Below are positions 3,905 to 56,210 of a stretch of 64,000 bases of DNA, in pieces. The stretch spans positions 99,651 through 163,650 of the forward strand of contig JBAZGN010000005.1 of the NCBI GenBank assembly GCA_041652815.1, read 5' to 3'. Position 1 is the first letter of the stretch. Every line of letters starts with the position of its first letter. The translations under genes were made by a program, and so were the position numbers. Origin of the DNA: Candidatus Omnitrophota bacterium. Its GTDB lineage: Bacteria; Omnitrophota; Gorgyraeia; Duberdicusellales; 4484-171. The notes beneath the pieces are model-generated. The model worked only from the letters and a program-made list of their open reading frames with translations. It was not told where the DNA came from and did no database searches.

Positions 3905-6900
3905 ATGGACAAGGACTATATGCTTCGCGATGATGGAAGTTTTATTATAAAGAATTATAACAGCAAACATCCATTTTCAAATTTTCTTCCCGGCGTAGCC
4001 GGTGCCTGGGGAGTACCGATGTGGGTTTTTTACGTAAACCGGGCACAGGGAGTTATAAGTTTCGGAGTCAAAGATAAAGATCACGCTATAACCGAATTTT
4101 TCCCGGCGAATAATGCTTATTGTTTTGCGCCGCTTGTAGGCTTTCGTACATTCCTCAAGATAAACGATAAAATTAATTATGAGCCATTTCGTGTAATTTC
4201 AGATTATGAACGTAACGAGGAGATGGTTATAAAAAGCTCATCTTTCAGCATACGCAAAAATAATCCGGAACTTGGCCTTAATTTGCGTATTAAATATTTT
4301 ACGCTTCCAAATAGCGCTGCGGGGGCACTGGTACGTGTTTTATCCGTTAAAAATATTTCCGACAAGGAAATAAAGCTTGAGGTTTTAGACGGGTTACCCA
4401 AAATAATACCCTTTGGATTAAACAACGTGTTGCTCAAAGATTTAGCAAGGACTATGGAAGCATGGATGCGCGCTGAAGTTCATAATAACCTGGCATTCTT
4501 CCGTATGATTGTTGACCCCAAAGATTCAAGCCAGACAAAATATATTGATGGCGCTAATTTCGAATACGCTTTTTATGAAGAAAACGGTAAAAAGGTATCA
4601 CCTTATATAATAGTAGACCCTACTGCAATTTTTGCGCAGGATACTTCCTATTCTGTTCCAGTTAATTTTTATGCAAGCAGTTTCAAAACTCCACTTACAC
4701 AAATTATGGCAGGGAAAACCCCGTGCGCTTTTAACCATTTTACATGGAGTATTCTACCGGGAGAGGTTAAAATATTTTACAGTATGTTTGGTTCTTCTTT
4801 TAAATCGCAGCTTATCAAAGATTTTGTTTCGGGAATAGATGCTAACTTTTTAAAAGAAAAAGAAAAAGAAAATAAAAGTATTATTGAAAATATTAAAGAT
4901 AATTGTTTTTCTGTATGTTCTTCAGACAGGCTGAAAGAGTATGTGAAATGTACTTATCTGGATAATGTTTTGCGCGGCGGTTACCCTTATAAATTTACGG
5001 ATAAAAACAGTTACTATATTTTTTCCCGCAAGCATGGTGACCTGGAAAGAGATTATAATAAGTTTAAGTTACTACCTTCCTATTTTAGTGAGGGCGAGGC
5101 AAATTATCGTGATATAAACCAGAACCGCAGGGTAGATTTATTCTTCAATCCGTCCCTTGGAAAATCAAATATAGTGTATTTCCTAAACCTCATAAAGATT
5201 GACGGATATAATCCGCTGGTAGTAAAAGGCGAAAGGCTGTTTTTTAACCAGGCAGCAGCGCGTAATCTATTAAAACAATTCGGTATAGCTGATAAAAAAA
5301 TAATTTCTCTGATGGTTTCAGGCTTTCATCTTGGTGATTTCTTTAAAATCCTTAAAGAAGAAGGTATTGTTGTCAAGGCGCGAGAAAAATTAGCCGCGGA
5401 ATTAGTTACGAAAGCGCAAAGAGAGCCTCAGGCAACTCATGGCGAAGGGTACTGGATAGATCATTGGCGCTATAACCTTGATTTAATCGAAAACTTCCTT
5501 TATTTTTATCCCGATAAATTAGATGACCTGTTTTTAACCAAGGAATATTATTTTTGGGATGATGAGTGGCGCGTTAAGGAACGCAGCCATCGTTTCCATT
5601 TAAAAGATGGTAAGGTTTACCAGTGGCACTCTGTTGAAGAAGTGGGAGAGAAAAAAGATGTTATAGCTTCGCGCGCAAAATTCGCTAATTTTCTGCGTGA
5701 TAAAAAAGGAAATATTTATACTACAAGCCTTATAGAAAAACTTTTAACTCTTATTCTCAATAAAGCTGCGACTTTAGATCCTGATGGTGTAGGCGTTGAA
5801 ATGGAGGCGGATAAACCAGGCTGGTGCGATTCTCTAAATGGCCTTCCTGCTCTTTTTGGCTCTTCAATATGCGAAACTTTTGAATTAAAGCGCGCCTGCC
5901 TTTTGCTGAGTGAAGCAGCATCAGCTTTAAACAAAAAAGGTACAGCTAATTTTAATTTGGCAGAGGAAGTGTATGAATTTTTAGAAGGGCTTGAAGGGCT
6001 GACTAAGAAATACTCTAACCTGCCGGCAAAACAGCGTGATATGTTCTGGTGGGAAAAATCCAATTCCCTGAAGGAAAGTTTCCGGAAAACAACTTTTGCG
6101 CAGATTAAAGGCAAACAGATAAGCATTCCCGGCCTGCGGCTAGAAAAATTCTTAAATTCGCTGGTTAATAAATTGGATAACGGTATCGAAAAAGCTCTGG
6201 ACAGGGATACAGGAATTTATTCTACGTATTTTAAGTATAGCGTAGAAAAATTTCATGCCAAAGGAAAAATAATTAAGCCGCTTAAGTTTAAAAAAGAGCC
6301 TCTCGCGCATTTCTTGGAAGGTTCGGTTCATGCTCTACGCACGCAAAAAGAAAGTTCTATTTATAGTGCGTTAAAGAAAACAGTTATTTTCGATAAAGTA
6401 TTACGGATGTACCGTCTCAACGCGTCTTTAGAAAAAGAACCTCTTGAAATTGGAAGAAGCAGGATTTTTACACCGGGCTGGCTTGAGAATGAATCCATCT
6501 GGCTGCATATGGAATACAAATACCTTTTGGAAGTGCTTAAAAAAGGTTTGTATGAAGAATTCTACGAAGATTTTCATAATTGCGCGGTATGTTTCTTCGA
6601 CGCGCAAAAATACGGAAGAAATATCCTGGAAAACTCTTCTTTTATTGTAAGCAGCGCTAATTGCGATAAAAATTTATGGAACAAAGGTTTTGTCGCGCGC
6701 TTAAGCGGTGCAACTGTTGAGCTCCTGAATATGTGGATTGTAATGTGCCTGGGTAAGTCGCCATTTAATATTAACGGTAATGGCGAACTAACTCTTAAAT
6801 TTTCCCCTATTCTCAAGTCAGAGCTTTTTACCAAGCAGGAGCAGAAAATCGAATTTAGAGGCAAAAGCGAGATTATTGAAAAAGATTGTTTCGCTTTCAA

Positions 6901-29298: not shown

Positions 29299-29560
29299 CG
29301 GTTACGTTAAACGGTTACGTAACTCGTTACGGTTGCGTTTGACGTAAAACGTTATGGAAGATAAAAAACCTATACGAAGTTTCCATGATTTAGATGATAC
29401 AATGACAAAATCCAACGAAACAATTACTTATGACAAAATTAGTAAGCAGTGTTACAATCTAGCAATTGCCTAGGATAAATTTAACGAACGTAATCCGGGA
29501 CGCAACCGATAGACGATAGACGAAACGGGTCGCGCAACCGTTTTACGAAAAACGCAACCA
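29299..29560. repeat. Family A' composite element (GGTTACG / GGTTGCG / TTTTACGTAAAACG arms) with a ~125-bp internal segment.
   Basis: Arms are related to 34658-34785 (GGTTGCGTTTTACGTAAAACG ... CGATAGACGAAACG..GCGCAACCG). Confidence 0.6.
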
Positions 29561-34107: not shown

Positions 34108-34662
34108 ATGATAGTAGGAATTGATGAAGCAGGCCGCGGCCCTTTGGCAGGAATTGTAAGTGCGTGCGCTCTTTATCTTAGTAAAGAGCCGCCGGAAGCT
34201 GTGCGCGATTCAAAAGAGTTAACGCCTTTTGCGCGGCAAAATCTTTTTGGTTGGCTTGTTGAAAATGCTTGTTTTTCCGTAGGTATTGCCAGTCCCCAGG
34301 AAATTGATAAACTCAATATACTTGAGGCGACAATGCTTGCGGCAAACCGGGCGATAAAAAAACTTTTAAACAAAGCGCCTTATCTTAAAAAAGCGCTTTT
34401 TATAATTGACGGCAATATCTTTCGCACCGAACTTGATATAAAATATAAGTGCATAGAAAAAGCAGATAAAACCGTAAAATCAGTTTCCTGCGCTTCAATC
34501 GTTGCGAAAGTGACCAGAGATTATCTGATGATGAATGCGCATTTTCTGTACCCTGAATGGAATTTTGCCAATCACAAAGGTTACCCGACGAAGGAGCACT
34601 ACGCGCTGATTGAAAAACACGCATTATCGCCGTTACATAGAAGGAGTTTTCGGTTAGGGTAA
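34108..34662 (+). CDS. rnhB: Ribonuclease HII.
   Basis: GIDEAGRGPLAG catalytic N-terminus; DSK; HK.GY motifs. Confidence 0.9.
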   Translation: MIVGIDEAGRGPLAGIVSACALYLSKEPPEAVRDSKELTPFARQNLFGWLVENACFSVGIASPQEIDKLNILEATMLAANRAIKKLLNKAPYLKKALFIIDGNIFRTELDIKYKCIEKADKTVKSVSCASIVAKVTRDYLMMNAHFLYPEWNFANHKGYPTKEHYALIEKHALSPLHRRSFRLG

Positions 34663-34785
34663 CGAAGCAAATTGGTTGCGTCAAGCGGTTGCGGTTACGC
34701 GACTCGTCACGGTTGCGTTTTACGTAAAACGTCTAACGATAGACGAAACGAGCAGCGCAACCGATTCACGTAAGACGCAACCATT
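34658..34785. repeat. Family A' element, copy 2.
   Basis: GGTAACGAAG...GGTTGCGTTTTACGTAAAACG...CGATAGACGAAACG...GCGCAACCG, immediately after the rnhB stop. Confidence 0.6.
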
Positions 34786-34800
34786 AATCATCCTGAATAG

Positions 34801-44400: not shown

Positions 44401-44815
44401 TTTAAAAATTGAAGATGAGACTTCAACTGTCGAGGTTTTTGTCTTTCCCAGGCTTTTTGCCGAAGCTGCTGCCGATATCAAGGAAAAAAGCATAATCGTT
44501 ATAAAGGGTAAACTTGAATCCAAAGAAAGAGCGCCCAAGATTTTAGCCGCTAAGATTATCCCGATTGAGCGTATTTTTGACAATATCAAAGGCCTTAATA
44601 TCGCCATAAACCAGGAGAAATTTCCTCTGGCGAATCTAAAAACCATTTTTTTAAATAATAGAGGAACAACCCCGGTTGTTTTTGCCTTTCGAAACGCAAA
44701 GCTTAATGGTGTTAAAATTAAAACCGCCAATCAATTCTGCCTAAAACTTACTGAAAACGCCCTAAAGGAAATTGGTGCGTTAATAGGGGATGAGAATCTT
44801 TCGTTGAGCCTCTAA
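41408..44815 (+). CDS. dnaE: DNA polymerase III alpha subunit.
   Basis: PHP N-terminus FIHLHVHTQYSLLDGA, palm and fingers blocks, OB fold. The annotated upstream ORF part is read-through of the repeat. Confidence 0.9.
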   Translation: MAHSDFIHLHVHTQYSLLDGACQLNRLIEKAVKFKLPGLAITDHGNLFGAVKFYEECMDAGIKPIIGCEVYVAPDSRFKKEYKNEDAGNYHLILLAKDEQGYKNLIKLVSLAHLEGFYYKPRIDKEILSQHNKGLIGLSACLKGEIASAIIADDIKGAYKKCDEYLQILGKGNFYLEIMENGLKEQAKANKHLLKISKELDVPVVATNDIHYLEKNESFAHEVLLCIQTQTTLNDPNRFKFNSDTFYFRSPDEMKAIFKEAPEAIKNTLEVMQKCNLVMDFSKIHLPRFPIPENETENGYLQKIVTENLPKRYSEVTDEVNKRLEYELGVINSTGFSSYFLIIWDLIKYAKENNIPVGPGRGSAAGSIVSFLLGITDVDPLKYDLLFERFLNPARISMPDIDMDFCYEKRSRVLEYVGKKYGEANVAQIITFGTMLARAVVRDVGRAMGHSYADVDKIAKMIPVIVGHQVTLKEALSQSPELSQVYQSDAGIKRLIDVAIQLEGLSRHASTHAAGVVISDKPLMERIPLIRGAEEEIVTGFDMESLEKTGLLKMDFLGLKTLTVIDSTVKIIKRTKGVEVDITNLPLDDKKTFSLLSQADTIGVFQLESRGMREILRKLIPTRFEDLIAVLALYRPGPLGSGMVDDFIERKQGKKPVSYGHPKLESILKETYGIILYQEQTMQIASKLAGFSLSQADLLRKAIGKKIPEIMEEQRNLFVEGSKKNGVSQRIATQIFDLIDYFSGYGFNKSHSTAYALISYRTAYLKANYPVEFMAALLTSERTNTDKIVEYVNEVNHMGMKVLPPDINTSFANFTVTDEKNIRFGLLAIKNVGTTALDNIIEIRKQKKFDDFFEFCDRVDGRVVNKKVLESLIKSGAMDSFKLKRAQMTAMLDKILAKTTKKEDPSQFLLFTAPKKQQEIPDVEEWPLLQILSFEKSLLGIYVTSHPLYSYANTVKHLHRQEIISLYEQESREEVVICGIVEKARIITTKRSGERMAILKIEDETSTVEVFVFPRLFAEAAADIKEKSIIVIKGKLESKERAPKILAAKIIPIERIFDNIKGLNIAINQEKFPLANLKTIFLNNRGTTPVVFAFRNAKLNGVKIKTANQFCLKLTENALKEIGALIGDENLSLSL

Positions 44816-44818
44816 TTA

Positions 44819-44873
44819 AGGTTACGAAAGTTACGAGGGTTACGCAGGTTACGAAGGTTACGGAAGTTACATT
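44819..44873. repeat. Family A array: six tandem 9-mers of GTTACGNNG (GGTTACGAA type).
   Basis: Strict 9-bp periodicity, directly after the dnaE stop. Confidence 0.75.
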
Positions 44874-44948
44874 TAAAAGACCTGATTTATTGTAATCTAT
44901 GTGATTTTCGTAGCTTTCGCGATCTTAACATATAATTTGTATAAACTC

Positions 44949-44977
44949 TTGACAAATCTCCAAATATATTGTATATA
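44949..44977 (+). promoter_or_regulatory. Sigma70-like promoter for the NTase module.
   Basis: TTGACA, 17 nt, TATATA; about 40 nt upstream of the ATG at 45017. Confidence 0.55.
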
Positions 44978-45016
44978 TTAATACAGAGGGTTGTATAAAA
45001 ACATACAATAAATTGT

Positions 45017-45586
45017 ATGGAATTACGCATAAATAAACAAAAATTGCTTGAAAATATTGGCCTTTGGGATGGTTACTTTAAGCGCAAGGTAAGCCTTATT
45101 GCTTGTGGCGGCACAGCCCTTACGCTTTTAGGGGTTAAGGATTCAACCAAGGACATTGATTTAATCGTTCCTAAAGAAGGTGAGTATGATTATTTGATAA
45201 AGGCTTTAAAGCAATTAGGTTATAAACCGGTAACCGGTGTAGGCTGGGCGAGAGATAGGGGTTTTATCTTTGATTTATTTAAAGGCAATAAAATTCATAC
45301 AACGCAGTTATTGGAATCGCCCCTTGATAATGGAAACAATATGTTGGTTAAAGAGTTTAACCATATCTATTTAGGCGTGCTTAACTATTATGATATCATT
45401 ATCAGCAAATTATTCCGTTCAACTTCCGTGGATATAGAGGATTGCTTGTTATTGGTAGAAAATAAGCGTAAAGATATAGATTTGGAAAAGTTAATTTCGC
45501 GTTTTAAGGAAACTGCAAGCTTCGATGTTTCCGAGGAAAAGGTAAATAAGAATTTAGAATATTTTCTTAAACTTATTGAAAAATAA
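45017..45586 (+). CDS. Pol-beta-superfamily nucleotidyltransferase, AbiEii/DUF1814-like (short).
   Basis: IACGGTALTLLGVKDSTKDIDLIV matches the hG[GS]..x(9-13)..DhD NTase core and the KGGTAL...S.DLDF signature of AbiEii-type toxins; a later acidic residue (DIIISK) is present. Confidence 0.55.
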   Translation: MELRINKQKLLENIGLWDGYFKRKVSLIACGGTALTLLGVKDSTKDIDLIVPKEGEYDYLIKALKQLGYKPVTGVGWARDRGFIFDLFKGNKIHTTQLLESPLDNGNNMLVKEFNHIYLGVLNYYDIIISKLFRSTSVDIEDCLLLVENKRKDIDLEKLISRFKETASFDVSEEKVNKNLEYFLKLIEK

Positions 45587-45588
45587 CT

Positions 45589-46263
45589 ATGGATAAAAAA
45601 GTTTTGCTTCAACAATTACATGCGTTAGGTTTCCCGTTATTAGAGCCGGATTCTTTTCTTAGCGCCGACTTGGTTTTGTGTGAGGTATTTAAAAGCAAAG
45701 ACCCGCGTCTCTGGGAAGGCTTTCCTGTTGTTTTAGCTAATGCTAATCAAAAAGGATTATTTAACTATCAAAGCCTCGCCCGCTCTTTAAAAACGCAATC
45801 GGAAAAATCGCAGCTTAATTCCCTTCTTGTGATGTCATTTGCCCTTTATGAATTTTATAACCTTAAATTCTATTGGGTAAAAGAACTTTTAAAAGCTTTG
45901 CCTGCCGGTTATAAAAATGAATTAGATTTATTTTTAAAAAAACTTAAAAACGATGAAGATTTTAAAGTAAACAATGTTACTATGTCAGCGCAAAGGCTTA
46001 AAGGCGCTTTTAATAATTATTTTAGCCATTTCCAATCAGCATTAGGAGATTTATTAGCGCAAAAACAGGAATTTGGCCTTGAATACGCCCTCTCACAGGT
46101 ATTTTCACCTAAACAAAAAGAATTATTTTTGAAAAAATTAAAAGGCGAAAAACTTACCAAAACCGAAAAAGAATACTTCTCCCGCACAGTTAAAAAGAAG
46201 GTTCAAGCTCTTGCCAATACCGAACTTCATCAATTTTGCAATAAGCTTCTTGACCAGCTATAA
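45589..46263 (+). CDS. Uncharacterised 224-aa partner protein of the NTase (no domain recognised).
   Basis: Starts 2 nt after the NTase stop (operonic); helical, K/L-rich; no match to HEPN Rx4-6H. Confidence 0.4.
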   Translation: MDKKVLLQQLHALGFPLLEPDSFLSADLVLCEVFKSKDPRLWEGFPVVLANANQKGLFNYQSLARSLKTQSEKSQLNSLLVMSFALYEFYNLKFYWVKELLKALPAGYKNELDLFLKKLKNDEDFKVNNVTMSAQRLKGAFNNYFSHFQSALGDLLAQKQEFGLEYALSQVFSPKQKELFLKKLKGEKLTKTEKEYFSRTVKKKVQALANTELHQFCNKLLDQL

Positions 46264-46290
46264 CGTACCTAATTATCTATATCAATTTTA

Positions 46291-46432
46291 GGTTACGAAG
46301 GTTACGAAGGCCAACAGGCCACCCTGTTGGGTAGGTTACGAATGTTACAATAAATCAAGTGATTTAAATGTAACCTTCGTAACTTCCGTAACCTGCCTGC
46401 CGGCAGGCAGGCATCCGTAACCTTCGTAACCT
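46291..46432. repeat. Family A palindromic element (GGTTACGAA arrays in inverted orientation with inner GC hairpins).
   Basis: TAGGTTACGAAGGTTACGAAGG ... TGTAACCTTCGTAACTTCCGTAACC ... CCGTAACCTTCGTAACC. Inner hairpins are CCAACAGG-CCAC-CCTGTTGG and CCTGCCTGCC-GGCAGGCAGG. Confidence 0.75.
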
Positions 46433-46473
46433 AAATTGTAATTCGTGGCAATTCGTCTTTAAAAAGAACCACC

Positions 46474-46502
46474 TTGACACCCCATTCCATAGCGTTAAAA
46501 TA
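46474..46502 (+). promoter_or_regulatory. Putative promoter (CTTGACACCCC, 16 nt, TAAAAT).
   Basis: A -35/-10 match. The same CTTGACACCC -35 context recurs after the family A copy at 49463. Confidence 0.35.
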
Positions 46503-46617
46503 ACCCCAAGTTTCACGGCGTTCGGGGGAAAACTACAATCAGGAGTAAACATCAGAGCGTTGGGAGACCGACGCTTTTTTAATGTTTATAGTTTGGTTGT
46601 AAGAAAAGGAGGTAAAC

Positions 46618-46959
46618 ATGAGATTTATAGTCTTGTTATTGTGTTTTTGTTTATTACCCATTCATGTGTTTTCTGCAGATGAGAAAAATACTATAAAGGT
46701 TCAAGAGTTAAATCGGGAAGAAGCAACTCAGATTTGGACTAAAACCGTATCAGAAGATGTGGCTGTAATAAGTTCAGATTTACGTACAATTACACCGGAA
46801 ACTCCTAAAGAAAAAGTAAATGAAATTTTAGAGGAAGCTTTGAAGAAAGTTCAAAAAATGCGAACAGAGGCAGCCAAACGAGGAGTTATTTTAGAAGGTT
46901 TTTCCATAAATTTAGCATTTCCACCATCGATGACAGTAGATTTTAAGTTTAAAGATTAA
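46618..46959 (+). CDS. Small secreted protein of 113 aa.
   Basis: AGGAGG RBS; signal peptide LLLCFCLLPIHVFSA. Confidence 0.45.
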   Translation: MRFIVLLLCFCLLPIHVFSADEKNTIKVQELNREEATQIWTKTVSEDVAVISSDLRTITPETPKEKVNEILEEALKKVQKMRTEAAKRGVILEGFSINLAFPPSMTVDFKFKD

Positions 46960-47042
46960 TTATACTTATAGCGAGTTCAGGCTCAACCCATTGCTTTGAA
47001 CCAAGGGTTTATCAAAACGTTTGATTTGTTAATGAGGGAAGC

Positions 47043-47687
47043 GTGTGCATGTTTGATTTTTTTAAAAACATTAGACGATATGTCAGAAGCAAAGATGCTT
47101 GTTTGCTTTATATGGTTATTGCTATCGTAATAATCCTTAGTTGTGTTTGTTTTGTAATCGGCAAATTCCTAGGTATTAACAAAGAGTTAGCAACAATTAT
47201 TGTGTTGTTTGCTACTTTAATGGCAATAATCATTTATACCTGGAAAACTTGGCAATATAAAGATCTTGTTTGCGAACAAATCCTATTAGACATAAGGCCT
47301 CTTGTAATTTTTGAATGCTATCACAGAACAATTAGAAATGTGGGTAAGGGGATAGCAAAGGGCATTTGGATTGAAAAAATTCCCATAAATTGCTTTAGAT
47401 TGCTCGGTATAGAAAATTCAGAGGCAAAATTTGTTATTTTTGATAAGGTTGGTTGTTTAGCAGACAAAGATTCATCCCCATACCTTAAGTTTAATCTTTT
47501 CGATGAAAAAGGAACAAAAATTACTGACCCCAATATCAGCGCTCTCATTGCGCGCACGTTGGATGACACCGGTAATTCCTTAGAGAAATTAAAGGTAGTA
47601 ATAGGATATTATGATTTAAAAAATAATGTTTATAGGACTCACATGAAAAACATAAATGGTGTATTTCAAGTTGATCATATCGTATAA
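47043..47687 (+). CDS. Membrane-anchored hypothetical protein.
   Basis: One or two N-terminal TM helices and a soluble C-domain; no known family. Confidence 0.4.
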   Translation: MCMFDFFKNIRRYVRSKDACLLYMVIAIVIILSCVCFVIGKFLGINKELATIIVLFATLMAIIIYTWKTWQYKDLVCEQILLDIRPLVIFECYHRTIRNVGKGIAKGIWIEKIPINCFRLLGIENSEAKFVIFDKVGCLADKDSSPYLKFNLFDEKGTKITDPNISALIARTLDDTGNSLEKLKVVIGYYDLKNNVYRTHMKNINGVFQVDHIV

Positions 47688-47785
47688 TAAATTCCAAGGA
47701 CGCAATACTTAATTATAGAAATACCCCTCGCGCCTGTATATCGTGTAAATTTTCACGCTCACTTCGCTCGCAGAAAATTTACACG

Positions 47786-47830
47786 AAGCGCTTCGGGGTT
47801 AATTTTCCGCCTGCGGCGGAAAATTAAGGA
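47786..47830. repeat. Family H module (GGGGTTAA-TTT-TCCGCCTGCGGCGGA-A-AATTAAGGAGG) that carries the RBS.
   Basis: Near-identical to 3856-3897; preceded by the CGAAGCGCTTCG palindrome also seen at 9551. Confidence 0.5.
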
Positions 47831-47836
47831 GGTATT

Positions 47837-48256
47837 ATGAATAGTTCATTATTTCTCGCAAGATTATTAGGCCCTTTTATTGTGCTAATTAGTATCAGCC
47901 TGCTAATTAATCTGAAGACTTACCGGCAGATTGTAGAAGGGTTTTTAGAGAACACCGCCCTTATCTACGTGACCGGTTTAATTACTTTTGTTGCGGGGCT
48001 GGCGATTGTGATTTTCCATAATTTATGGGTTGTTGATTGGAGAGTGATAATCACGGTTTTTGGTTGGATTACACTTATTAAAGGCGTGTGGCTTACAGTC
48101 TTTCCGGCTAATGCGGTTAAAATCAGCAAGGTATTTGTAAAGAATATTAAATTTGTTGCAATTCCCTGGATTGTGATGTTTGCGTTGGGGCTTTTTTTGG
48201 TTATGCAGGGTTATTTACCGCAACCAAGAATACACGCACCCGCTATGCAAATGTAG
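47837..48256 (+). CDS. 4-TM membrane protein (hypothetical).
   Basis: Four hydrophobic helices; RBS supplied by family H. Confidence 0.45.
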   Translation: MNSSLFLARLLGPFIVLISISLLINLKTYRQIVEGFLENTALIYVTGLITFVAGLAIVIFHNLWVVDWRVIITVFGWITLIKGVWLTVFPANAVKISKVFVKNIKFVAIPWIVMFALGLFLVMQGYLPQPRIHAPAMQM

Positions 48257-48257
48257 A

Positions 48258-48295
48258 AACCAAAGCCCACCTCGTAGGTGGGCTTTGGTTCTAAT
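48258..48295 (+). terminator. Rho-independent terminator.
   Basis: AACCAAAGCCCACC-TCGTAGG-TGGGCTTTGGTT followed by CTAATT. Confidence 0.55.
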
Positions 48296-48327
48296 TCCCA
48301 ACCTACTAACCTATCAACTAAATTTCC

Positions 48328-48357
48328 TTGACATTCATATAGGACATATGGTATATT
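48328..48357 (+). promoter_or_regulatory. Sigma70 promoter with extended -10 for the fic gene.
   Basis: TTGACA, 18 nt, TGgTATATT. Confidence 0.55.
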
Positions 48358-48409
48358 CTAATTGAGCCTATTTATGGGACAAATGTCCTAATGCTAAAAA
48401 GGGGAAAAA

Positions 48410-49315
48410 ATGAAGGTTTTTAGGCTAAGCGATAAAGAGAAACTGCAGAAAATACTTAAAGCTACCGGGGTTTCGCGTTCCGAGCTTGCCCGTCAGCTTG
48501 AGGTAAATTATAAGGCTATTTACCGCTGGCTGGATTGTGGAATTAACCCGCATCCGCGTCAATCCAAAGATATAGACCAGTTATTTAAAAAATACGTTGA
48601 TTTACGCGAAGTGGTCTTGTCTTTACGTAAAAGCGCGAAAGAACCCATAAAGCTTCTTAGGGAGAATAACAAATTACGCGAGAAATTTTTCCTTGAGATG
48701 ACTTATAACTCTAACGCCATAGAGGGCAGCCGGATGACGGTCAAAGAAACCGAGCTTGCCTTTGAGGGTAAAAAGGTTAAAGGCAAAGAGCTATTTGAGG
48801 TGCTGGAAGCGGTAAATCACAAAAATGCGTTAGAGTTTTTGCTGGAGAACATAAAACCTAATTTTAAAATTGATGAACAATACGCCCTTAAACTGCATTC
48901 AATAATAATGTATAATTTTAACAACAAGCTTCCGGGTAAATACCGGACCGGCCACGTAAACCTGACCAATACCGAAAAAGAGCTGCCTTCTGCCCAGGAA
49001 GTTCCTTTAAGGGTGGGTAAGCTGCTAAAAAATATAAATAATTATGGCAAAGATGCCATAGGCAAAATCGCTCTTGACCATTATGAATTCGAAGCAATCC
49101 ACCCATTTTTTGATGGAAACGGCCGCGTTGGCCGGCTGATTACGCTTACTCAAACCTTAAGCAAAGGGTTTGCTCCGGCGCTTCTAAAGGTTGATGACCG
49201 TTATAAATATTATATGGCTTTAGGCAAGGCGGATTTTGGTGATTATAAAAACATTATCCAAATGATTTGTGATAGCATAATAGAGGGTTATAATTTATTC
49301 TTTCAAGCAATTTAG
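48410..49315 (+). CDS. Fic-family protein (AMPylase-type) with an N-terminal HTH.
   Basis: Canonical Fic motif HPFFDGNGRVGR; N-terminal wHTH-like segment (RSELARQLEVNYKAIYRWL). Confidence 0.8.
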   Translation: MKVFRLSDKEKLQKILKATGVSRSELARQLEVNYKAIYRWLDCGINPHPRQSKDIDQLFKKYVDLREVVLSLRKSAKEPIKLLRENNKLREKFFLEMTYNSNAIEGSRMTVKETELAFEGKKVKGKELFEVLEAVNHKNALEFLLENIKPNFKIDEQYALKLHSIIMYNFNNKLPGKYRTGHVNLTNTEKELPSAQEVPLRVGKLLKNINNYGKDAIGKIALDHYEFEAIHPFFDGNGRVGRLITLTQTLSKGFAPALLKVDDRYKYYMALGKADFGDYKNIIQMICDSIIEGYNLFFQAI

Positions 49316-49393
49316 CTTTGTTCCACATACCCAAGACAAAACATAATAATAAGCCTAACTTCCTGCCCTCAAGTAGGTTGCAATAATTCTGTA

Positions 49394-49456
49394 GGTAACC
49401 TTCGTAACTTTCGTAACCTACGTAACCTTCGTAACCAGAGCCAACAGGCTCTTCTA
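49394..49456. repeat. Family A array (GGTAACCTTCGTAAC units, inverted orientation) plus a GC hairpin.
   Basis: Five tandem 9-mers GTAACNTNC, then AGAGCCAACAGGCTCT. Confidence 0.7.
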
Positions 49457-49462
49457 TTACTC

Positions 49463-49492
49463 CCTTGACACCCAAAAAAACAATGATACACT
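49463..49492 (+). promoter_or_regulatory. Putative promoter giving a near-leaderless hup transcript.
   Basis: CTTGACACCC, 17 nt, TACACT; the ATG at 49499 is ~7 nt after the -10. Confidence 0.35.
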
Positions 49493-49498
49493 AAACCT

Positions 49499-49771
49499 AT
49501 GCGTAAACGTGATATTGTCCTAAAAATAAGCCAAAATACAGGCATTAAGCAGGTTGTGGTCAGGGATATTGTCCAGCATACCTTTGACACCATTTTTGAG
49601 GCGCTTAAAAACGGGGAACGCATAGAATTAAGGAATTTTGGGGTTTTCCAGGTAAAGAAAAGAAAGAAAAGAATCGGCAGAAACCCTAAAACAGGGGAAG
49701 TTATCCCAGTTCCGGAAAGGCATACCGTAGTATTTAAGCCTGGCCTTGAGATGAAGCAACTCATTAAATAA
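49499..49771 (+). CDS. hup: HU/IHF-family DNA-binding protein.
   Basis: The whole 90-aa sequence matches the HU/IHF fold (GFGxF arm motif NFGVFQV...R.GRNPKTGE). Confidence 0.8.
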   Translation: MRKRDIVLKISQNTGIKQVVVRDIVQHTFDTIFEALKNGERIELRNFGVFQVKKRKKRIGRNPKTGEVIPVPERHTVVFKPGLEMKQLIK

Positions 49772-49784
49772 TCCCGCACCTTCA

Positions 49785-51077
49785 ATGATAAAAACCTATA
49801 AAAGTATAAGGGGAACTTATGATTTTAGCCCCGCAGAAACCTACCTGTTTAATCAAATAGCCGAAAAGGCAAGGCATATTTTTGCTTTGTACGGTTATGA
49901 CGAAATTATTCTTCCGTTTCTTGAGGAAGAAGGTGTTTTTATAAGAAGCGTTGGCGAGACTACAGACATCGTCGAAAAACAAATTTTTAGAATTGCCAAA
50001 CGCTCTGAAACTGATTCCGACATCGTGTTAAGGCCCGAAGGAACCGCGCAGGTTGTAAGGTATTACCTCGAGCATGCTCTTTATAAACAAAGCGACTTTA
50101 ATAAATTTTCCTACATCGGAGCGATGTTTAGGGGAGAGCGGCCGCAAAAGGGAAGGCTTCGTCAGTTCCACCATATCGGCGCAGAAGCAATGGGCTCAGA
50201 CAGCATTTTTCTTGATGCGGAAATGATTTCATTGAGCCTTAAGTTGCTGGATGAAATAGGCATTACCGAAAGAAAACTTAATATAAATACTTTAGGCTGC
50301 CAGGCAGATAAAGAAAAATTTATGAGTCTGCTTAAGAAAGATTTATCCGCCAGGCGCAATGAGCTTTGCCCGGATTGCCAAAGAAGGCTTCTTAAAAATC
50401 CTTTAAGGATACTTGATTGCAAGCAGGAACACTGTAAGAAAATAGCGGTTTCTTTTTGTCTTTCTGAAACCAGCGGCAAAACTTATCTTTGCAAGGATTG
50501 CGATAGCAAATTTCAGGAACTGTTAAAATTGTTTAAAAGCTCAAATATAGATTATGTTTATAATCCCTGCCTTGTCCGAGGGCTTGATTATTATACAAAT
50601 ACGGTTTTTGAAATTACCTCATCTAGCTTGGGATCGCAAGATGCAATCGGCGCCGGCGGCAGATATAATAATTTAATAAAAAATCTGGGCGGACCGGACA
50701 TACCGGCTTGCGGTTTTGCGCTTGGCGTTGAAAGGGTTATGCTTGCGTTAAATAAAAGCCAAGCGCAAATTGCGCCTGATGTTTTTATCGCGGTAACCGG
50801 AGAAAATTTACGTGATGAATCTTTCAAAATGCTTCAGGTTCTGCGGGCTGCCAACGTGCATTGCGATATGGACTATTGCGCAAAATCACTTAAAGGGCAG
50901 CTGCGCTATGCCGAGAAAAAGGGCATTAATTTTGTTTTAATTGTCGCTGAAGAAGAATACAGTCAAGGATTTGTTATCCTGAAAAATATGGAAGCATCTT
51001 CCCAGGAAAAAATAAAAATAGGAGACCTCACTGAGGTAGTACGCGGGGTTGTAGCAGACGGAGAAGGAATAGCGTAA
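49785..51077 (+). CDS. hisS: Histidyl-tRNA synthetase.
   Basis: Class II motifs and HisRS-specific blocks (YIGAMFRGERPQKGR, GGRYNNL). Carries a Cys-rich insertion CPDC...CKQEHC...CKDC. Confidence 0.9.
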   Translation: MIKTYKSIRGTYDFSPAETYLFNQIAEKARHIFALYGYDEIILPFLEEEGVFIRSVGETTDIVEKQIFRIAKRSETDSDIVLRPEGTAQVVRYYLEHALYKQSDFNKFSYIGAMFRGERPQKGRLRQFHHIGAEAMGSDSIFLDAEMISLSLKLLDEIGITERKLNINTLGCQADKEKFMSLLKKDLSARRNELCPDCQRRLLKNPLRILDCKQEHCKKIAVSFCLSETSGKTYLCKDCDSKFQELLKLFKSSNIDYVYNPCLVRGLDYYTNTVFEITSSSLGSQDAIGAGGRYNNLIKNLGGPDIPACGFALGVERVMLALNKSQAQIAPDVFIAVTGENLRDESFKMLQVLRAANVHCDMDYCAKSLKGQLRYAEKKGINFVLIVAEEEYSQGFVILKNMEASSQEKIKIGDLTEVVRGVVADGEGIA

Positions 51078-51096
51078 AAAAATATTTTGATATTCA

Positions 51097-51202
51097 GGTT
51101 ACGAAAGTTACGAAGGTTACGCAGGTTACGAATGTTACAATAAATCAAGTGTTTCAAGTGTAACTTTCGTAACATTCGTAACTTCCCGTAACATCCGTAA
51201 CC
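51097..51202. repeat. Family A long palindrome: five GGTTACGAA 9-mers, a ~25-nt centre, then five inverted 9-mers.
   Basis: GGTTACGAAAGTTACGAAGGTTACGCAGGTTACGAATGTTACA ... TGTAACTTTCGTAACATTCGTAACTTCCCGTAACATCCGTAACC. Confidence 0.8.
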
Positions 51203-51216
51203 TAAAAAAGGGACTT

Positions 51217-52599
51217 ATGTTAAGAACACATACATGCGGAGAGCTTAACCAGGATAATTTAAATCAGGAAGTGGTTTTGTGCGGCTGGGTGCATTCGCGC
51301 CGCGACCACGGTAAACTGATTTTTATCGACATAAGAGATAGATACGGTATTACGCAGGTTGTATTTTTCCCAAAACCAAACAAAGAAACTTACGAAAAAG
51401 CCAAGAGCCTGCGCAGCGAAGATGTAATTAAGGTTAAGGGGCCAGTTAATTTACGGCCTAAAGGAACTGAAAATCCTAAGCTTAAAACAGGTTTCGTCGA
51501 AATAGGTGGCCTCGAGCTTGAAATTATAAATTCATCATTGGATTTGCCTTTTCCTATTGATGATACAATTGAACCCGGAGAAGAAGTAAAGCTTACTTAT
51601 CGTTATCTTGATTTGCGCCGGCCAAAGACACTTGAAAAAATGGTTTTGCGGCATAATTTTAACCAAGCCTTAAGGGAATTTTTAAACGATAAAAATTTTA
51701 TTGAAGTGGAAACACCGTTTCTTACCAAGTCTACGCCGGAAGGCGCGCGCGATTTTCTTGTTCCTTCCAGGCTTAGCCCTAATAAGTTTTACGCGCTTCC
51801 GCAGTCACCGCAGCTTTTCAAACAGATTCTTATGGTTGCCGGCTTTGACAGATATTATCAGGTGGTTAGGTGTTTCAGGGACGAGGATTTAAGGAAAGAC
51901 CGCCAGCCGGAATTTACCCAGCTTGATATTGAAATGTCTTTTGTCGATGAAGATGATATAATTTCACTGATGGAATCTTTTATTGCCTATACTTTCAAAA
52001 AAGTCCTGGGTAAAGAAATAAAAACCCCTTTCTTAAGAATACCTTACACTGAGGCAATGGAAAAATATAAGAGCGATAAGCCTGATGTGGGCGAAGGCGA
52101 ATACCGTTTTTGCTGGGTAGTGGATTTTCCGCTTTTCGAATATAATGATGAAGAGAAAAAATGGCAGTCATGCCATCACCCTTTTACCTCTCCAAAAATT
52201 GACAGCCTTGAGCTTCTCGATGGAGATTTGTCAAAAGTGAAAGCCCGCGCTTACGACCTTATCTTAAACGGAGAAGAAATTGCCGGCGGCTCAATAAGAA
52301 TACATTCTTCGCAATTACAACAAAAAATATTTTCTATTTTAGGCATATCCGAAGAGGATGCTAAGCATAAATTCGGGTTTTTGCTGGATGCTTTTAAGTA
52401 TGGCGCGCCAATACACGGCGGTATAGCTTTTGGTTTGGACAGGCTTTATGCAATTATTACAAAATCGGACAGCATAAGGGAAGTTATAGCGTTTCCCAAA
52501 ACACAAAAAGGAGTTTGCCTTTTATCGGACGCGCCGTCACAGGTTGAGCCTAAGCAGCTTAAGGAAATTTACATAAAGATGATAGAGGAAGAAAAGTAA
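51217..52599 (+). CDS. aspS: Aspartyl-tRNA synthetase, bacterial-type core lacking the GAD insertion domain.
   Basis: QSPQLFKQILMVAGFDRYYQVVRCFRDEDLRKDRQPEFTQLDIEMSF; 460 aa rather than ~590. Confidence 0.9.
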   Translation: MLRTHTCGELNQDNLNQEVVLCGWVHSRRDHGKLIFIDIRDRYGITQVVFFPKPNKETYEKAKSLRSEDVIKVKGPVNLRPKGTENPKLKTGFVEIGGLELEIINSSLDLPFPIDDTIEPGEEVKLTYRYLDLRRPKTLEKMVLRHNFNQALREFLNDKNFIEVETPFLTKSTPEGARDFLVPSRLSPNKFYALPQSPQLFKQILMVAGFDRYYQVVRCFRDEDLRKDRQPEFTQLDIEMSFVDEDDIISLMESFIAYTFKKVLGKEIKTPFLRIPYTEAMEKYKSDKPDVGEGEYRFCWVVDFPLFEYNDEEKKWQSCHHPFTSPKIDSLELLDGDLSKVKARAYDLILNGEEIAGGSIRIHSSQLQQKIFSILGISEEDAKHKFGFLLDAFKYGAPIHGGIAFGLDRLYAIITKSDSIREVIAFPKTQKGVCLLSDAPSQVEPKQLKEIYIKMIEEEK

Positions 52600-52678
52600 G
52601 CTTTCAGTTGTCAGCCGTCAGCTATCAGCAGGTTTTATAGAAGCTGAAGACTGAAAGCTGAGAGCTGACAGCTTAAAG
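52600..52678. repeat. Family G palindrome (CAGCTATCAGC / GCTGACAGC units).
   Basis: GCTTTCAGTTGTCAGCCGTCAGCTATCAGC...GCTGAAGACTGAAAGCTGAGAGCTGACAGC. A partial relative is at 22515-22560. Confidence 0.6.
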
Positions 52679-52695
52679 CAAAAAAGGAGGGTTCC

Positions 52696-53217
52696 ATGAA
52701 GTATTTAATTGCGTTACTGGGGATTGTTTTTTTAGGCGGATGTCTTAGCAGGACTTATACCATAGAAAAACCGCGTACTAATTTAGAAATACATGGTAAT
52801 CAGGGTTATTTATTCGGCACCCCAAAAGAAGAACCCAAACCGAATAAATTCGGTGAAACAAGAAAAGTTTCAGTACTTGAAGTGGAGCTGGGTGCGCATC
52901 CAAGAAAAAAAGCCAAAAAAGAAGAAGTAAAACCACAAGAAGAAATGGTTGTTGAAGAAGAAATTATTGAAGAAGAACCAATGGTTGAAGAGCCTTTGGC
53001 TGCCTCTGAGGCAAAGTATGAATTATATACCGTCCAGAAAAATGATACTCTTCAGAAAATTTCAGAAAAATTCTACGGAACAACGAAAAAATGGAAAATG
53101 ATTTATGATAATAACCGGGATGTGTTAAAAACTCCGGATAGAGTTTATCCCGGCAAAACCATAAAGATACCTATTTTGAGCAATAAAGCGCAGAATACAG
53201 ATTATCAATATAAATAA
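52696..53217 (+). CDS. LysM-domain lipoprotein.
   Basis: Lipobox LGGC; E/K-rich linker; C-terminal LysM (YTVQKNDTLQKISEKFYG...PGKTIKIP). Confidence 0.6.
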   Translation: MKYLIALLGIVFLGGCLSRTYTIEKPRTNLEIHGNQGYLFGTPKEEPKPNKFGETRKVSVLEVELGAHPRKKAKKEEVKPQEEMVVEEEIIEEEPMVEEPLAASEAKYELYTVQKNDTLQKISEKFYGTTKKWKMIYDNNRDVLKTPDRVYPGKTIKIPILSNKAQNTDYQYK

Positions 53218-56050: not shown

Positions 56051-56059
56051 TTGATTAAA

Positions 56060-56210
56060 TAACCAAGCTCCAAGATACAATAACCAAACAATGACCAATA
56101 ATCAAATTCCAATAACCAAACGAAAAAGAATAAAACTGTTTGGTCATTGGTTATTGGATATTGGAATTTGTTTGTATCTTGTACCTTGGTTATTGGTTAT
56201 TTTATAAAGA
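56060..56210. repeat. Family F imperfect palindrome (CCAATAACCAAAC / GTTTGGTCATTGGTTATTGG units).
   Basis: ATAACCAAG...CCAATAACCAAAC - centre - GTTTGGTCATTGGTTATTGG...CCTTGGTTATTGGTTAT. Confidence 0.6.

Follow-up and report, generated by a model that had tools for sequence, protein, structure and literature searches.

Repetitive extragenic palindromic (REP) elements, bacterial interspersed mosaic elements (BIMEs) and REP doublets forming hairpins (REPINs) are extragenic multi-copy palindromes, the REP and BIME elements being those of Enterobacteria and Pseudomonas; they often sit between cistrons or no more than about 15 nt from a stop codon, and they are in mosaic with other short motifs. 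Each REP unit is one GC-rich palindrome, 20-40 nt long and headed by GTAG or CGTC, and REP elements affect stop-codon-proximal translation; REPINs, hairpins of about 100 nt made of two inverted halves, are mobilised by REP-associated tyrosine transposases (RAYTs) and are long-lived and vertically inherited. Mycobacterial interspersed repetitive units (MIRUs) lie between the cistrons of operons in a single orientation to transcription, with ends that abut the flanking stop and start codons, and iteron- and centromere-like arrays are bound cooperatively by small proteins. Correia elements (CREE, Neisseria) and enterobacterial repetitive intergenic consensus (ERIC) sequences of Enterobacteria form co-transcribed stable hairpins which are cut by RNases, and they show presence/absence polymorphism (PMC10969869, PMC2649163). 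Here we describe family A, our name for a dispersed two-arm palindromic element built from GGTTACGAA-type 9-mers, which we analysed in a window of 64,000 nt from a Candidatus Omnitrophota bacterium (contig JBAZGN010000005.1 of assembly GCA_041652815.1, positions 99,651 to 163,650; coordinates below are those of the window). The Omnitrophota are an uncultured, widespread phylum; a literature search found no paper on their non-coding DNA and no description of family A. [quoted passage not shown]

In the canonical unit, about 105 nt long, two opposed arms enclose an asymmetric centre of about 21 nt; each arm has four to five 9-nt units in phase, a unit being GTTACG and a spacer of 3 nt. The consensus left arm reads GGTTACGAA (A/T)GTTACGAA AGTTACGCA GGTTACGAA GGTTAC and is preceded by TTWAG, the centre reads A(A/C)TAAATCACGAGGTTTTAAAT, and the right arm reads GTAAC(Y)TTC GTAACTTCCC GTAACATCC GTAACCTTC GTAAC(C/A), followed by TAAA. 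Alignments of the copies show that each arm has its own conserved spacer order and that one unit is 10 nt long, which argues that the copies descend by copying from a master sequence and not by local repeat expansion; fixed differences between the arms also make the orientation of a copy assignable. The flank consensus (T-W-A-G|GTTAC on the left, GTAAC-M-T-A-A-A on the right) prolongs the palindrome and contains no T-run. The full element of the hisS-aspS spacer (51097-51202, plus strand) shows this anatomy as a 106-nt imperfect palindrome in forward orientation (nhmmer 98.5 bits forward versus 68.0 bits reverse). Its left arm (51097-51139; GGTTACGAA AGTTACGAA GGTTACGCA GGTTACGAA TGTTACA) comprises four full 9-mers and a truncated GTTACA unit, its centre (51140-51159) is 20 nt long, and its right arm (51160-51202) has five units, one of them of 10 nt (TTCCCGTAAC). 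An earlier note, made from the letters of the window alone, had described this copy as a near-perfect palindrome with arms of five tandem 9-mers. Near-perfect is true of the hexamers only, as the arm mismatches sit at spacer positions.

The repeat is real and non-random, as the earlier note had it: GGTTACGAA occurs 42 times in the window at ≤1 mismatch, compared with 12.0 ± 3.7 times in dinucleotide-preserving shuffles (0 of 100 reach 42). Tandem Repeats Finder reports period-9 arrays at 44818-44870, 46290-46310, 46370-46394, 49395-49436, 51096-51138 and 51160-51201, and period-9 arrays of [G/A/T]GTTACGNN lie at 44820-44871, 46291-46431, 49395-49436 and 51097-51202, with a remnant at 1333-1376. 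In total the window holds five family A copies, four of them inside 6.5 kb, and about 80 more were found beyond it in related metagenome-assembled genomes (MAGs) and two metagenomes; the loci fetched from these sources are cited below by L-numbers and amount to about 1.5 Mb. A scan of a genome collection for three phased GTTACG units returned much noise plus six loci in five Omnitrophota MAGs with the same palindromes; carrier MAGs include JBAZGZ01, JBAYMZ01, JALOBR01 and JAQTOI01. A search of metagenomes for the two-arm architecture gave 105 loci, of which some 70 are low-GC contigs with family A, mostly from the two metagenomes, 3300029288 (Ga0265297) and Ga0172381. A nhmmer profile built from 16 copies detected 83 family A elements in the low-GC loci and the window. 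The histidyl-tRNA synthetase (HisRS) of the window is 100% identical to a Candidatus Omnitrophica MAG protein. Searches of Rfam reached the gathering score with tRNAs only and left family A unmatched, and an E-value search of 44700-52800 gave a best E of 0.25. Plasmid and phage searches gave no family A match and a viral-contig search yielded eight hits with no family member among them; what these searches returned were coding Gly-Val-Thr repeats and phage iterons. No conserved open reading frame (ORF) runs through family A, the short ORFs differing between copies, and a small coupling ORF as in MIRUs was rejected as a candidate for the same reason.

The position of the elements between genes is narrowly defined. 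Among 68 oriented, non-identical elements, the median gap is 9 nt between the stop codon of the upstream same-strand ORF and the first GTTAC (≤30 nt in 54 of 62 cases) and 20 nt between the last GTAAC and the start of the downstream same-strand ORF (≤39 nt in 47 of 55). Judging from these distances, the terminal TAAG or TAG of the element doubles as the stop codon in roughly twenty copies. Family A fills the intercistronic spacers of co-directional genes, and the element either inserts into such spacers or survives only there; extragenic, intercistronic, near stop codons and long-lived at orthologous sites, it sits where REP elements sit. Since no room is left for a promoter downstream, we infer that family A is transcribed within the polycistronic mRNA, as REP and REPIN stem-loops are. 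The mRNA would then carry a long imperfect hairpin about one ribosome footprint past the stop codon, ending just before the next Shine-Dalgarno sequence; for the 51097 element the predicted minimum free energy (MFE) of the RNA is -43.1 kcal/mol (z = -8.7). By analogy with REP, ERIC and Correia elements, such an intercistronic stem-loop would most likely set the stability or processing of mRNA segments or termination-proximal ribosome behaviour.

The same distances bear on the proposal of the earlier note that the copies are terminator-insulator units, in which upstream transcription would stop at the hairpin and start again from a promoter behind it. In favour of this, the fold is very stable, strong promoter-like sites follow two of the window copies, and the remnant at 1333 lies behind a canonical terminator-like hairpin. 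But the stem is followed by (C/A)TAAA(A/T) and not by a T-run or U-tract, all elements are absent from the terminator scan, and a promoter, which follows only two of the five window copies, does not fit before the next start codon in the 47 of 55 cases with ≤39 nt between; housekeeping pairs such as hisS-aspS would moreover be uncoupled. As a general role we regard this as very improbable. A promoter inside the element was also considered and rejected, as the promoter scan found none and the right-end GTAACA-18-TAnAAT would put the transcription start inside the Shine-Dalgarno sequence.

Regarding orientation, the G-rich arm comes first, 5' with respect to the genes, in 46 of the 47 copies that lie between co-directional genes and can be oriented (27 in the arrangement +,+,+ and 19 in the arrangement -,-,-, versus one discordant copy). 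The search pattern is symmetric, so that the bias was not produced by the search, and a bias of 46:1 is not known to us from REP elements. Every family A locus has a gene-strand bias of about 100% with a matching GC skew, and transcription and replication are therefore inseparable as the cause. The bias may arise because reversed copies are selected against inside operons or because insertion is itself strand-specific; reversed, a C-rich, G-poor arm would come right after the stop codon and could recruit Rho. Nearly all genes are on one strand in these genomes, accounting for 99% of the ORF length in the window and 75-100% in the Omnitrophota loci, and the GC skew is of one sign.

Comparison of orthologous spacers revealed both gain and persistence. 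The gene order dnaE-HU-hisS-aspS-LysM-phoH is common to the window and four relatives (L224, L226, L228 and L229), in whose approximately 20 kb of synteny no family A copy was found. The hisS-aspS spacer is 139 nt long with the element in the window, 9 nt with only a Shine-Dalgarno sequence in the closest relative L229 (HisRS 89% identical to that of the window) and 23 nt without an element in L228 (81%); it consists of 93 nt of unrelated sequence in L224 (82%) and contains in its 110 nt a different palindrome (CACGTAACACG type) in L226 (82%). Likewise, L214 has a 3-nt spacer at the site filled by family A in L159 and L180, L061 (syntenic with 51.8-57.6 kb of the window) has a filled LysM-phoH spacer that is unfilled in the window, and L172 carries a CACGTAAC-type palindrome at the site of a family A copy in L205. 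Filled versus minimal spacers in relatives show that family A copies are insertions and that the spacers are colonised by several families. The presence/absence comparison proposed in the earlier note thus found polymorphism. The note had also held that copies collinear and conserved in distant relatives would speak for ancient sites rather than mobile repeats; many copies are indeed collinear, with 13 pairs of elements sharing a site in relatives with flanks of 72-96% identity, but empty and filled sites occur as well. Collinearity together with insertion polymorphism argues for a family that has been mobile in its history and is also long-lived. Copies at orthologous sites differ by whole-unit insertions and deletions and by gained or lost GC hairpin modules. 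Once inserted, family A is inherited vertically, and it evolves by such insertions and deletions of whole units and by nested insertion of small GC hairpins.

The MITE- and REP-like palindromy noted earlier is supported for a dispersed repeat family. Non-coding, multi-copy and dispersed, at lengths of 60-145 nt where MITEs stay below 500 bp, family A has the size and copy number of MITEs and shares their insertion polymorphism, and its arms of about 45 nt are inverted repeats out to TTWAG/CTWAA, longer than the 4-30 bp of MITE inverted repeats (PMC10969869). Correia and ERIC elements are similar in that they measure 100-150 nt, end in inverted repeats and occupy AT-rich intergenic targets with TA-rich flanks. 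MITE inverted repeats differ in not being tandem arrays, young MITE copies show target duplications, of which none is demonstrable here, and no parent insertion sequence is known for family A. Family A has the placement, mosaic build and long life of REP/BIME/REPIN elements. Compared with REP units, its arms of four to five phased 9-nt units are of moderate GC content and carry no GTAG or CGTC tag, so that of its parts only a nested GC hairpin (module A, below) has the form of a REP. MIRUs, alike in position and single orientation, are 46-101-bp direct tandem repeats with small coupling ORFs and not palindromes. The short tandemly repeated repetitive (STRR) heptamer arrays of cyanobacteria and the BOX elements of pneumococci are also intergenic, made of short tandem units or modules and predicted to fold, but they differ in units, taxa and architecture: BOX modules measure about 45 nt, and STRR arrays are without two defined arms and a conserved centre. 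Family A is unusual in its phased 9-mer arms with a near-invariant 6-nt core, its 46:1 orientation and the coexistence of several palindrome families.

Several results weigh against family A being a mobile repeat whose role lies in an mRNA hairpin. A copy-specific target-site duplication of 2-9 nt, which the earlier note had asked for, was not found in a permutation test over 288 length/offset combinations; the best signal (z = 3.8) came from 3 of 65 copies, an invariant TA or TAA duplication is not separable from the conserved termini, and TAAAAAA flanks the 51097 insert left and right, a lone weak case. Searches of the window, of the variable gene island described below and of the approximately 1.5 Mb of fetched DNA turned up neither an autonomous partner nor a transposase. 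Copies at orthologous sites do not count as independent observations; with unique sites only, the orientation sample falls from 47 to roughly 33, at which the bias is still overwhelming. Transcripts of either strand fold equally well (61 elements compared forward and reverse, Wilcoxon p = 0.28), and hairpin stability therefore does not explain the orientation. Compensatory changes for the stem were not seen with RNAalifold on 37 copies (shifted register; 1 of 25 pairs doubly changed), a test rendered uninformative by the invariance of the hexamers. Hexamer variants are symmetric between the arms (GTTGCG five times left, four times right), which, together with an intact arm beside a decayed partner in the element at 44820, points to a constraint on the sequence itself, possibly at the DNA level, and not to a purely RNA-structural one. 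An asymmetry between RNA strands was rejected accordingly, forward and reverse MFEs being the same and G-U-compatible variants showing no arm bias.

The missing target duplication is what single-strand mobilisation by a HUH/Y1 transposase of the IS200/IS605 or RAYT type would give. Family A would then be a REPIN analogue with the folded strand as substrate, inserted strand-specifically relative to replication, and its orientation bias would be mechanistic and not selective. Conserved stem imperfections (the 10-nt unit and the fixed mismatches), an orientation that tracks replication equally well given the strand bias and the same-sign GC skew, the long life and vertical inheritance of the copies in parallel with REPINs, and the GTAG-tagged REP-like module nested in arrays all agree with this. 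On the other hand, tblastn gave no Y1, RAYT or IS200/IS605-like match in the fetched DNA, a weak test with IS608 and IS200 TnpA queries and partial genomes, both termini are conserved and palindromic (TTWAG...CTWAA), unlike IS200/IS605 ends, and the arms are untagged. We consider this route possible but on balance doubtful.

The strongest constraint was found in the hexamers. Across the 13 orthologous pairs they differ at 11 of 422 positions (2.6%), compared with 155 of 734 (21%) for spacers and centre. Divided by predicted pairing, divergence is 2.7% at paired and 5.8% at unpaired hexamer positions, 15% at other paired and 30% at other unpaired positions. Both pairing and hexamer identity are thus constrained, hexamers being about five times more conserved than other paired positions. 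Outside the arrays GTTACG is at background (18 observed versus 22 expected), which also argues that the hexamer constraint is not purely one of RNA pairing; restriction or avoidance of the hexamer was rejected as a cause because of this expected frequency.

Such conservation beyond pairing would fit a sequence-specific binder, and to this extent the binding array suggested by the earlier note stands, with a putative protein. In its full form this explanation takes the element as a DNA-level array on which an oligomerising host protein (nucleoid-associated, roadblock or centromere-like) occupies 9-bp-phased GTTACG sites, convergent as 5+5, the palindromy being secondary; it is compatible with the element being a mobile repeat. 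The fivefold higher conservation of the hexamers, the variant spectrum identical in both arms when read in hexamer sense, the intact arms at 44820 and 49395 without pairing partners and the equal fold energies of both strands speak for it. Against it, no candidate protein is known and GTTACG stays at background elsewhere, unpaired non-hexamer positions diverge twice as much as paired ones, so that pairing is constrained too, at least four other families with different units share location and architecture and would each need a separate binder, and a symmetric array does not predict the 46:1 orientation. We rate it as rather unlikely. The short phased direct and inverted repeats do recall iterons and centromere-like sites (plasmid R1 parC, the pSM19035 omega heptads, mobile-element origins), a resemblance drawn earlier from the strict 9-bp periodicity, but those arrays occupy a single locus beside a rep or par gene, whereas family A copies are dispersed among housekeeping or cargo genes.

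For the mobile repeat that we favour, the phased hexamers are probably recognition sites of a putative protein that mobilises or reads the element. A more specific version, by analogy with TRAP on RNA or with omega/ParR on DNA, is that an oligomeric protein reads four to five GTTACG/GUUACG repeats at 9-nt spacing and opens, closes or marks the hairpin; this is a speculative idea to which we give little probability. If true, it would mean a repeat-based system that punctuates or tunes Omnitrophota operons, in which each of families A, A', B and C (the last three described below) would be paired with its own protein in parallel, and function, not insertion history, would account for the near-absolute orientation. 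If there is no partner protein or effect at the RNA level, family A is just one more small repeat family. The combination of insertion gain, long retention, a strict 6-nt core and one orientation is stronger evidence of constraint than exists for most bacterial repeat families, and it gives a handle on whether REP and MITE elements are parasites, domesticated regulators or both. In practical terms, the elements are likely to cause assembly breaks and are useful strain markers in metagenomes.

The remaining window copies are all on the plus strand and illustrate how the element varies. A mosaic element at 46291-46431 has a GC hairpin inserted in each arm, and it had correctly been called a compound palindrome with inner GC hairpins. 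It consists of outer left units (46291-46308), the GTAG-tagged, REP-like hairpin module A (46309-46333), inner left units (46334-46349), a centre (46350-46369), inner right units (46370-46393), hairpin module B (46394-46413) and outer right units (46414-46431). Its predicted RNA MFE is -83.2 kcal/mol (z = -12.5), with the side hairpins branching off the main stem. With its GTAG tag and GC hairpin, module A (GTAGGCCAACAGGCCACCCTGTTGGG) is itself of REP type (compare PMC3733652). Modules A and B recur inside arrays at other loci, and 17 of 19 occurrences of the GC hairpin modules are within arrays. Once module A was seen outside a 9-mer array (CCAACAGGCCACCCTGTTGG, L184 10434-10485), nested in another palindrome (TCCTCGGGCTTTAGG...GTAGCCCGTAGGA), an occurrence that suggests an independently mobile REP-like unit.

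The element next to dnaE (44820-44927) has an orientation that is ambiguous (nhmmer about 50 bits on both strands); an intact arm of six GTTACG units (44820-44871, 36 of 36 hexamer bases retained) is followed by a centre (44872-44891) and a point-mutated right arm (44892-44927) with about a quarter of its bases changed. An element remnant detected by nhmmer at 49373-49436 keeps the innermost unit and centre (AGGTTGCAATAATTCTGTAG, 49373-49394) and an intact arm of five CGTAAC units (49395-49436); a small hairpin (49437-49452) and the promoter of the HU gene come next, and the end of L190 holds an orthologue of this copy that is more decayed and has the same promoter. These two had been taken for one-sided arrays, but they are really full elements with one decayed arm. 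The fragment reported at 1332 is a remnant (1333-1376) that retains GGTT, the hairpin of module B (1341-1357) and, from the right arm, the two outer units (ATCCGTAAC TTTCGTAACA). It is the deletion derivative of a full element, which L179, with a flank of 80-84% nucleotide identity, keeps at the same site. Each copy had been said to start within a few nt of a stop codon. This is so for 44820 (4 nt past the dnaE stop codon at 44813-44815), 51097 (19 nt), 46291 (27 nt) and the family A' copies at 29299 and 34658, but not for 49395 (79 nt) or 1333 (58 nt, behind the terminator-like hairpin).

Three window copies bound or divide a variable island between dnaE and the HU gene (45017-49315, about 4.5-4.6 kb), of which the 44820 element forms the left boundary; the outer arms are intact and the inner arms decayed. 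The island encodes a DUF6036 nucleotidyltransferase with an adjacent 224-aa ORF, three small ORFs without assignment and a Fic protein with matches to two candidate defence models of PADLOC, PDC-S04 and SoFic (E = 8e-37). In four relatives an unrelated gene of 419-431 aa stands in place of the island. L190 carries different cargo but shares the 46291-type element, including its promoter and leader, and also the 49395-type boundary together with the HU promoter. This could mean that the 44820 and 49395 outer arms are cassette recombination sites, attC-like or ends of a composite transposon, which mobilise the DUF6036/Fic island, and the arrangement of intact outer and decayed inner arms, the exchange of cargo in relatives and the defence-type Fic protein all point this way. 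The pair 44820/49395 is also the only widely separated one, as opposed arms in the fetched loci lie within about 40 nt and none enclose an ORF. Searches of the island proteins against Pfam, NCBIfam and PADLOC, however, detected no transposase or recombinase domain, no integrase or transposase is in or near the island, and no duplication flanks it. The attC core RYYYAAC...GTTRRRY is not matched by the ends GGTTACG...CGTAACC, since GTTACGA misfits GTTRRRY and the polarity relative to the genes is GTT...AAC and not AAC...GTT, and most copies are not clustered near an IntI gene but dispersed across the chromosome between housekeeping genes (hisS-aspS, dnaE, tRNA flanks). A cassette role is thus improbable. 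That the arms at the island act as ends or recombination points of a larger unit fits the arrangement, and the earlier suggestion of recombination hotspots keeps this loose fit.

Two sigma-70-like promoters on the plus strand lie in this region: TTGACA-16-TAAAAT at 46474-46501 (11 of 12 promoter positions matched), 43 nt downstream of the 46291 element, and TTGACA-16-TACACT with TG at 49465-49492, ahead of the HU gene and conserved in L190. They belong to the island and the HU gene and not to the repeat. The CTTGACACCC -35 element that several copies were said to share follows only two of them (46473 and 49464), and its three matches at ≤1 mismatch, compared with 1.4 expected, are not significant. 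Downstream of the 46474 promoter comes a segment of about 80 nt, resembling a leader or small RNA, that ends in a terminator-like hairpin with a T-run (46554-46577). This segment (46474-46583) is 86% conserved in L190 (84-204), where it precedes different genes, and has no Rfam match.

Family A is accompanied by other unit-based palindromes. GGTTGCG/GGTTACG motifs without a strict 9-nt phase, arranged around a perfect 18-nt palindrome ACGTTTTACGTAAAACGT and an outer CGGTTGCG...CGCAACCG repeat, define family A', represented in the window at 34658-34790 (plus strand, RNA MFE -54.4 kcal/mol) and by a shorter copy at 29299-29340; relatives occur in L149 (1825-1923, 92% conserved) and in two other spacers of L061 (about 5180-5330 and 1560-1720). 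Family A' is a separate family, and not a variant of family A as first supposed. As in STRR arrays, heptamers are the unit of two further window palindromes. Family B (52600-52679) fills the aspS-to-LysM spacer from stop codon to Shine-Dalgarno sequence with 7-nt units xxTCAGC / GCTGAxx (RNA MFE -41.8 kcal/mol), with a shorter orthologue in L226 (12787-12840) and more arrays in L172, L221, L091, L124 and L126. Family C, located at 56058-56202 in the recO-to-queF spacer, has 7-nt units CCAAT / ATTGG, TTGGTTA (RNA MFE -51.5 kcal/mol) and is 98% identical to L207 3317-3461; at the same site L224 has a 22-nt spacer, L226 another palindrome and L061 family A'. Several unit-based palindrome families (A, A', B, C and the CACGTAAC type) compete for the same spacers across lineages, and the spacers of these compact, almost fully co-directional Omnitrophota operons have been colonised repeatedly by short-unit palindromes. 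A further family (GTATCACGTAACACG ... CGTGTTAC..GATAC) was seen in L226 (11310-11385) and L172 (4905-4975), in spacers that hold family A in the window and L205.

GTTACG arrays of high GC content from actinomycetes, soil contigs, Acinetobacter and Bathyarchaeota were picked up because the search pattern selected for them. In actinomycetes and high-GC soil contigs, GTTACG 9-mers form inverted sets interspersed with additional single copies (L063 6560-6700, L068 2530-2670, L116 6765-6900, L137 5338-5399 and L139 7883-7947), and the arrays adjoin DUF3631 and AAA_25/RepA-like plus winged helix-turn-helix genes. Probably these are iterons of mobile elements, integrative or replicative; homology to family A is unsupported, and the idea of a common protein partner for GTTACG arrays across phyla was rejected. 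As a minor observation on the genes flanking the 51097 element, the aspartyl-tRNA synthetase encoded at 51217-52599 comprises only 460 aa (460-463 aa in relatives), which is the short length of the archaeal/non-discriminating type, the typical bacterial enzyme having about 590 aa.

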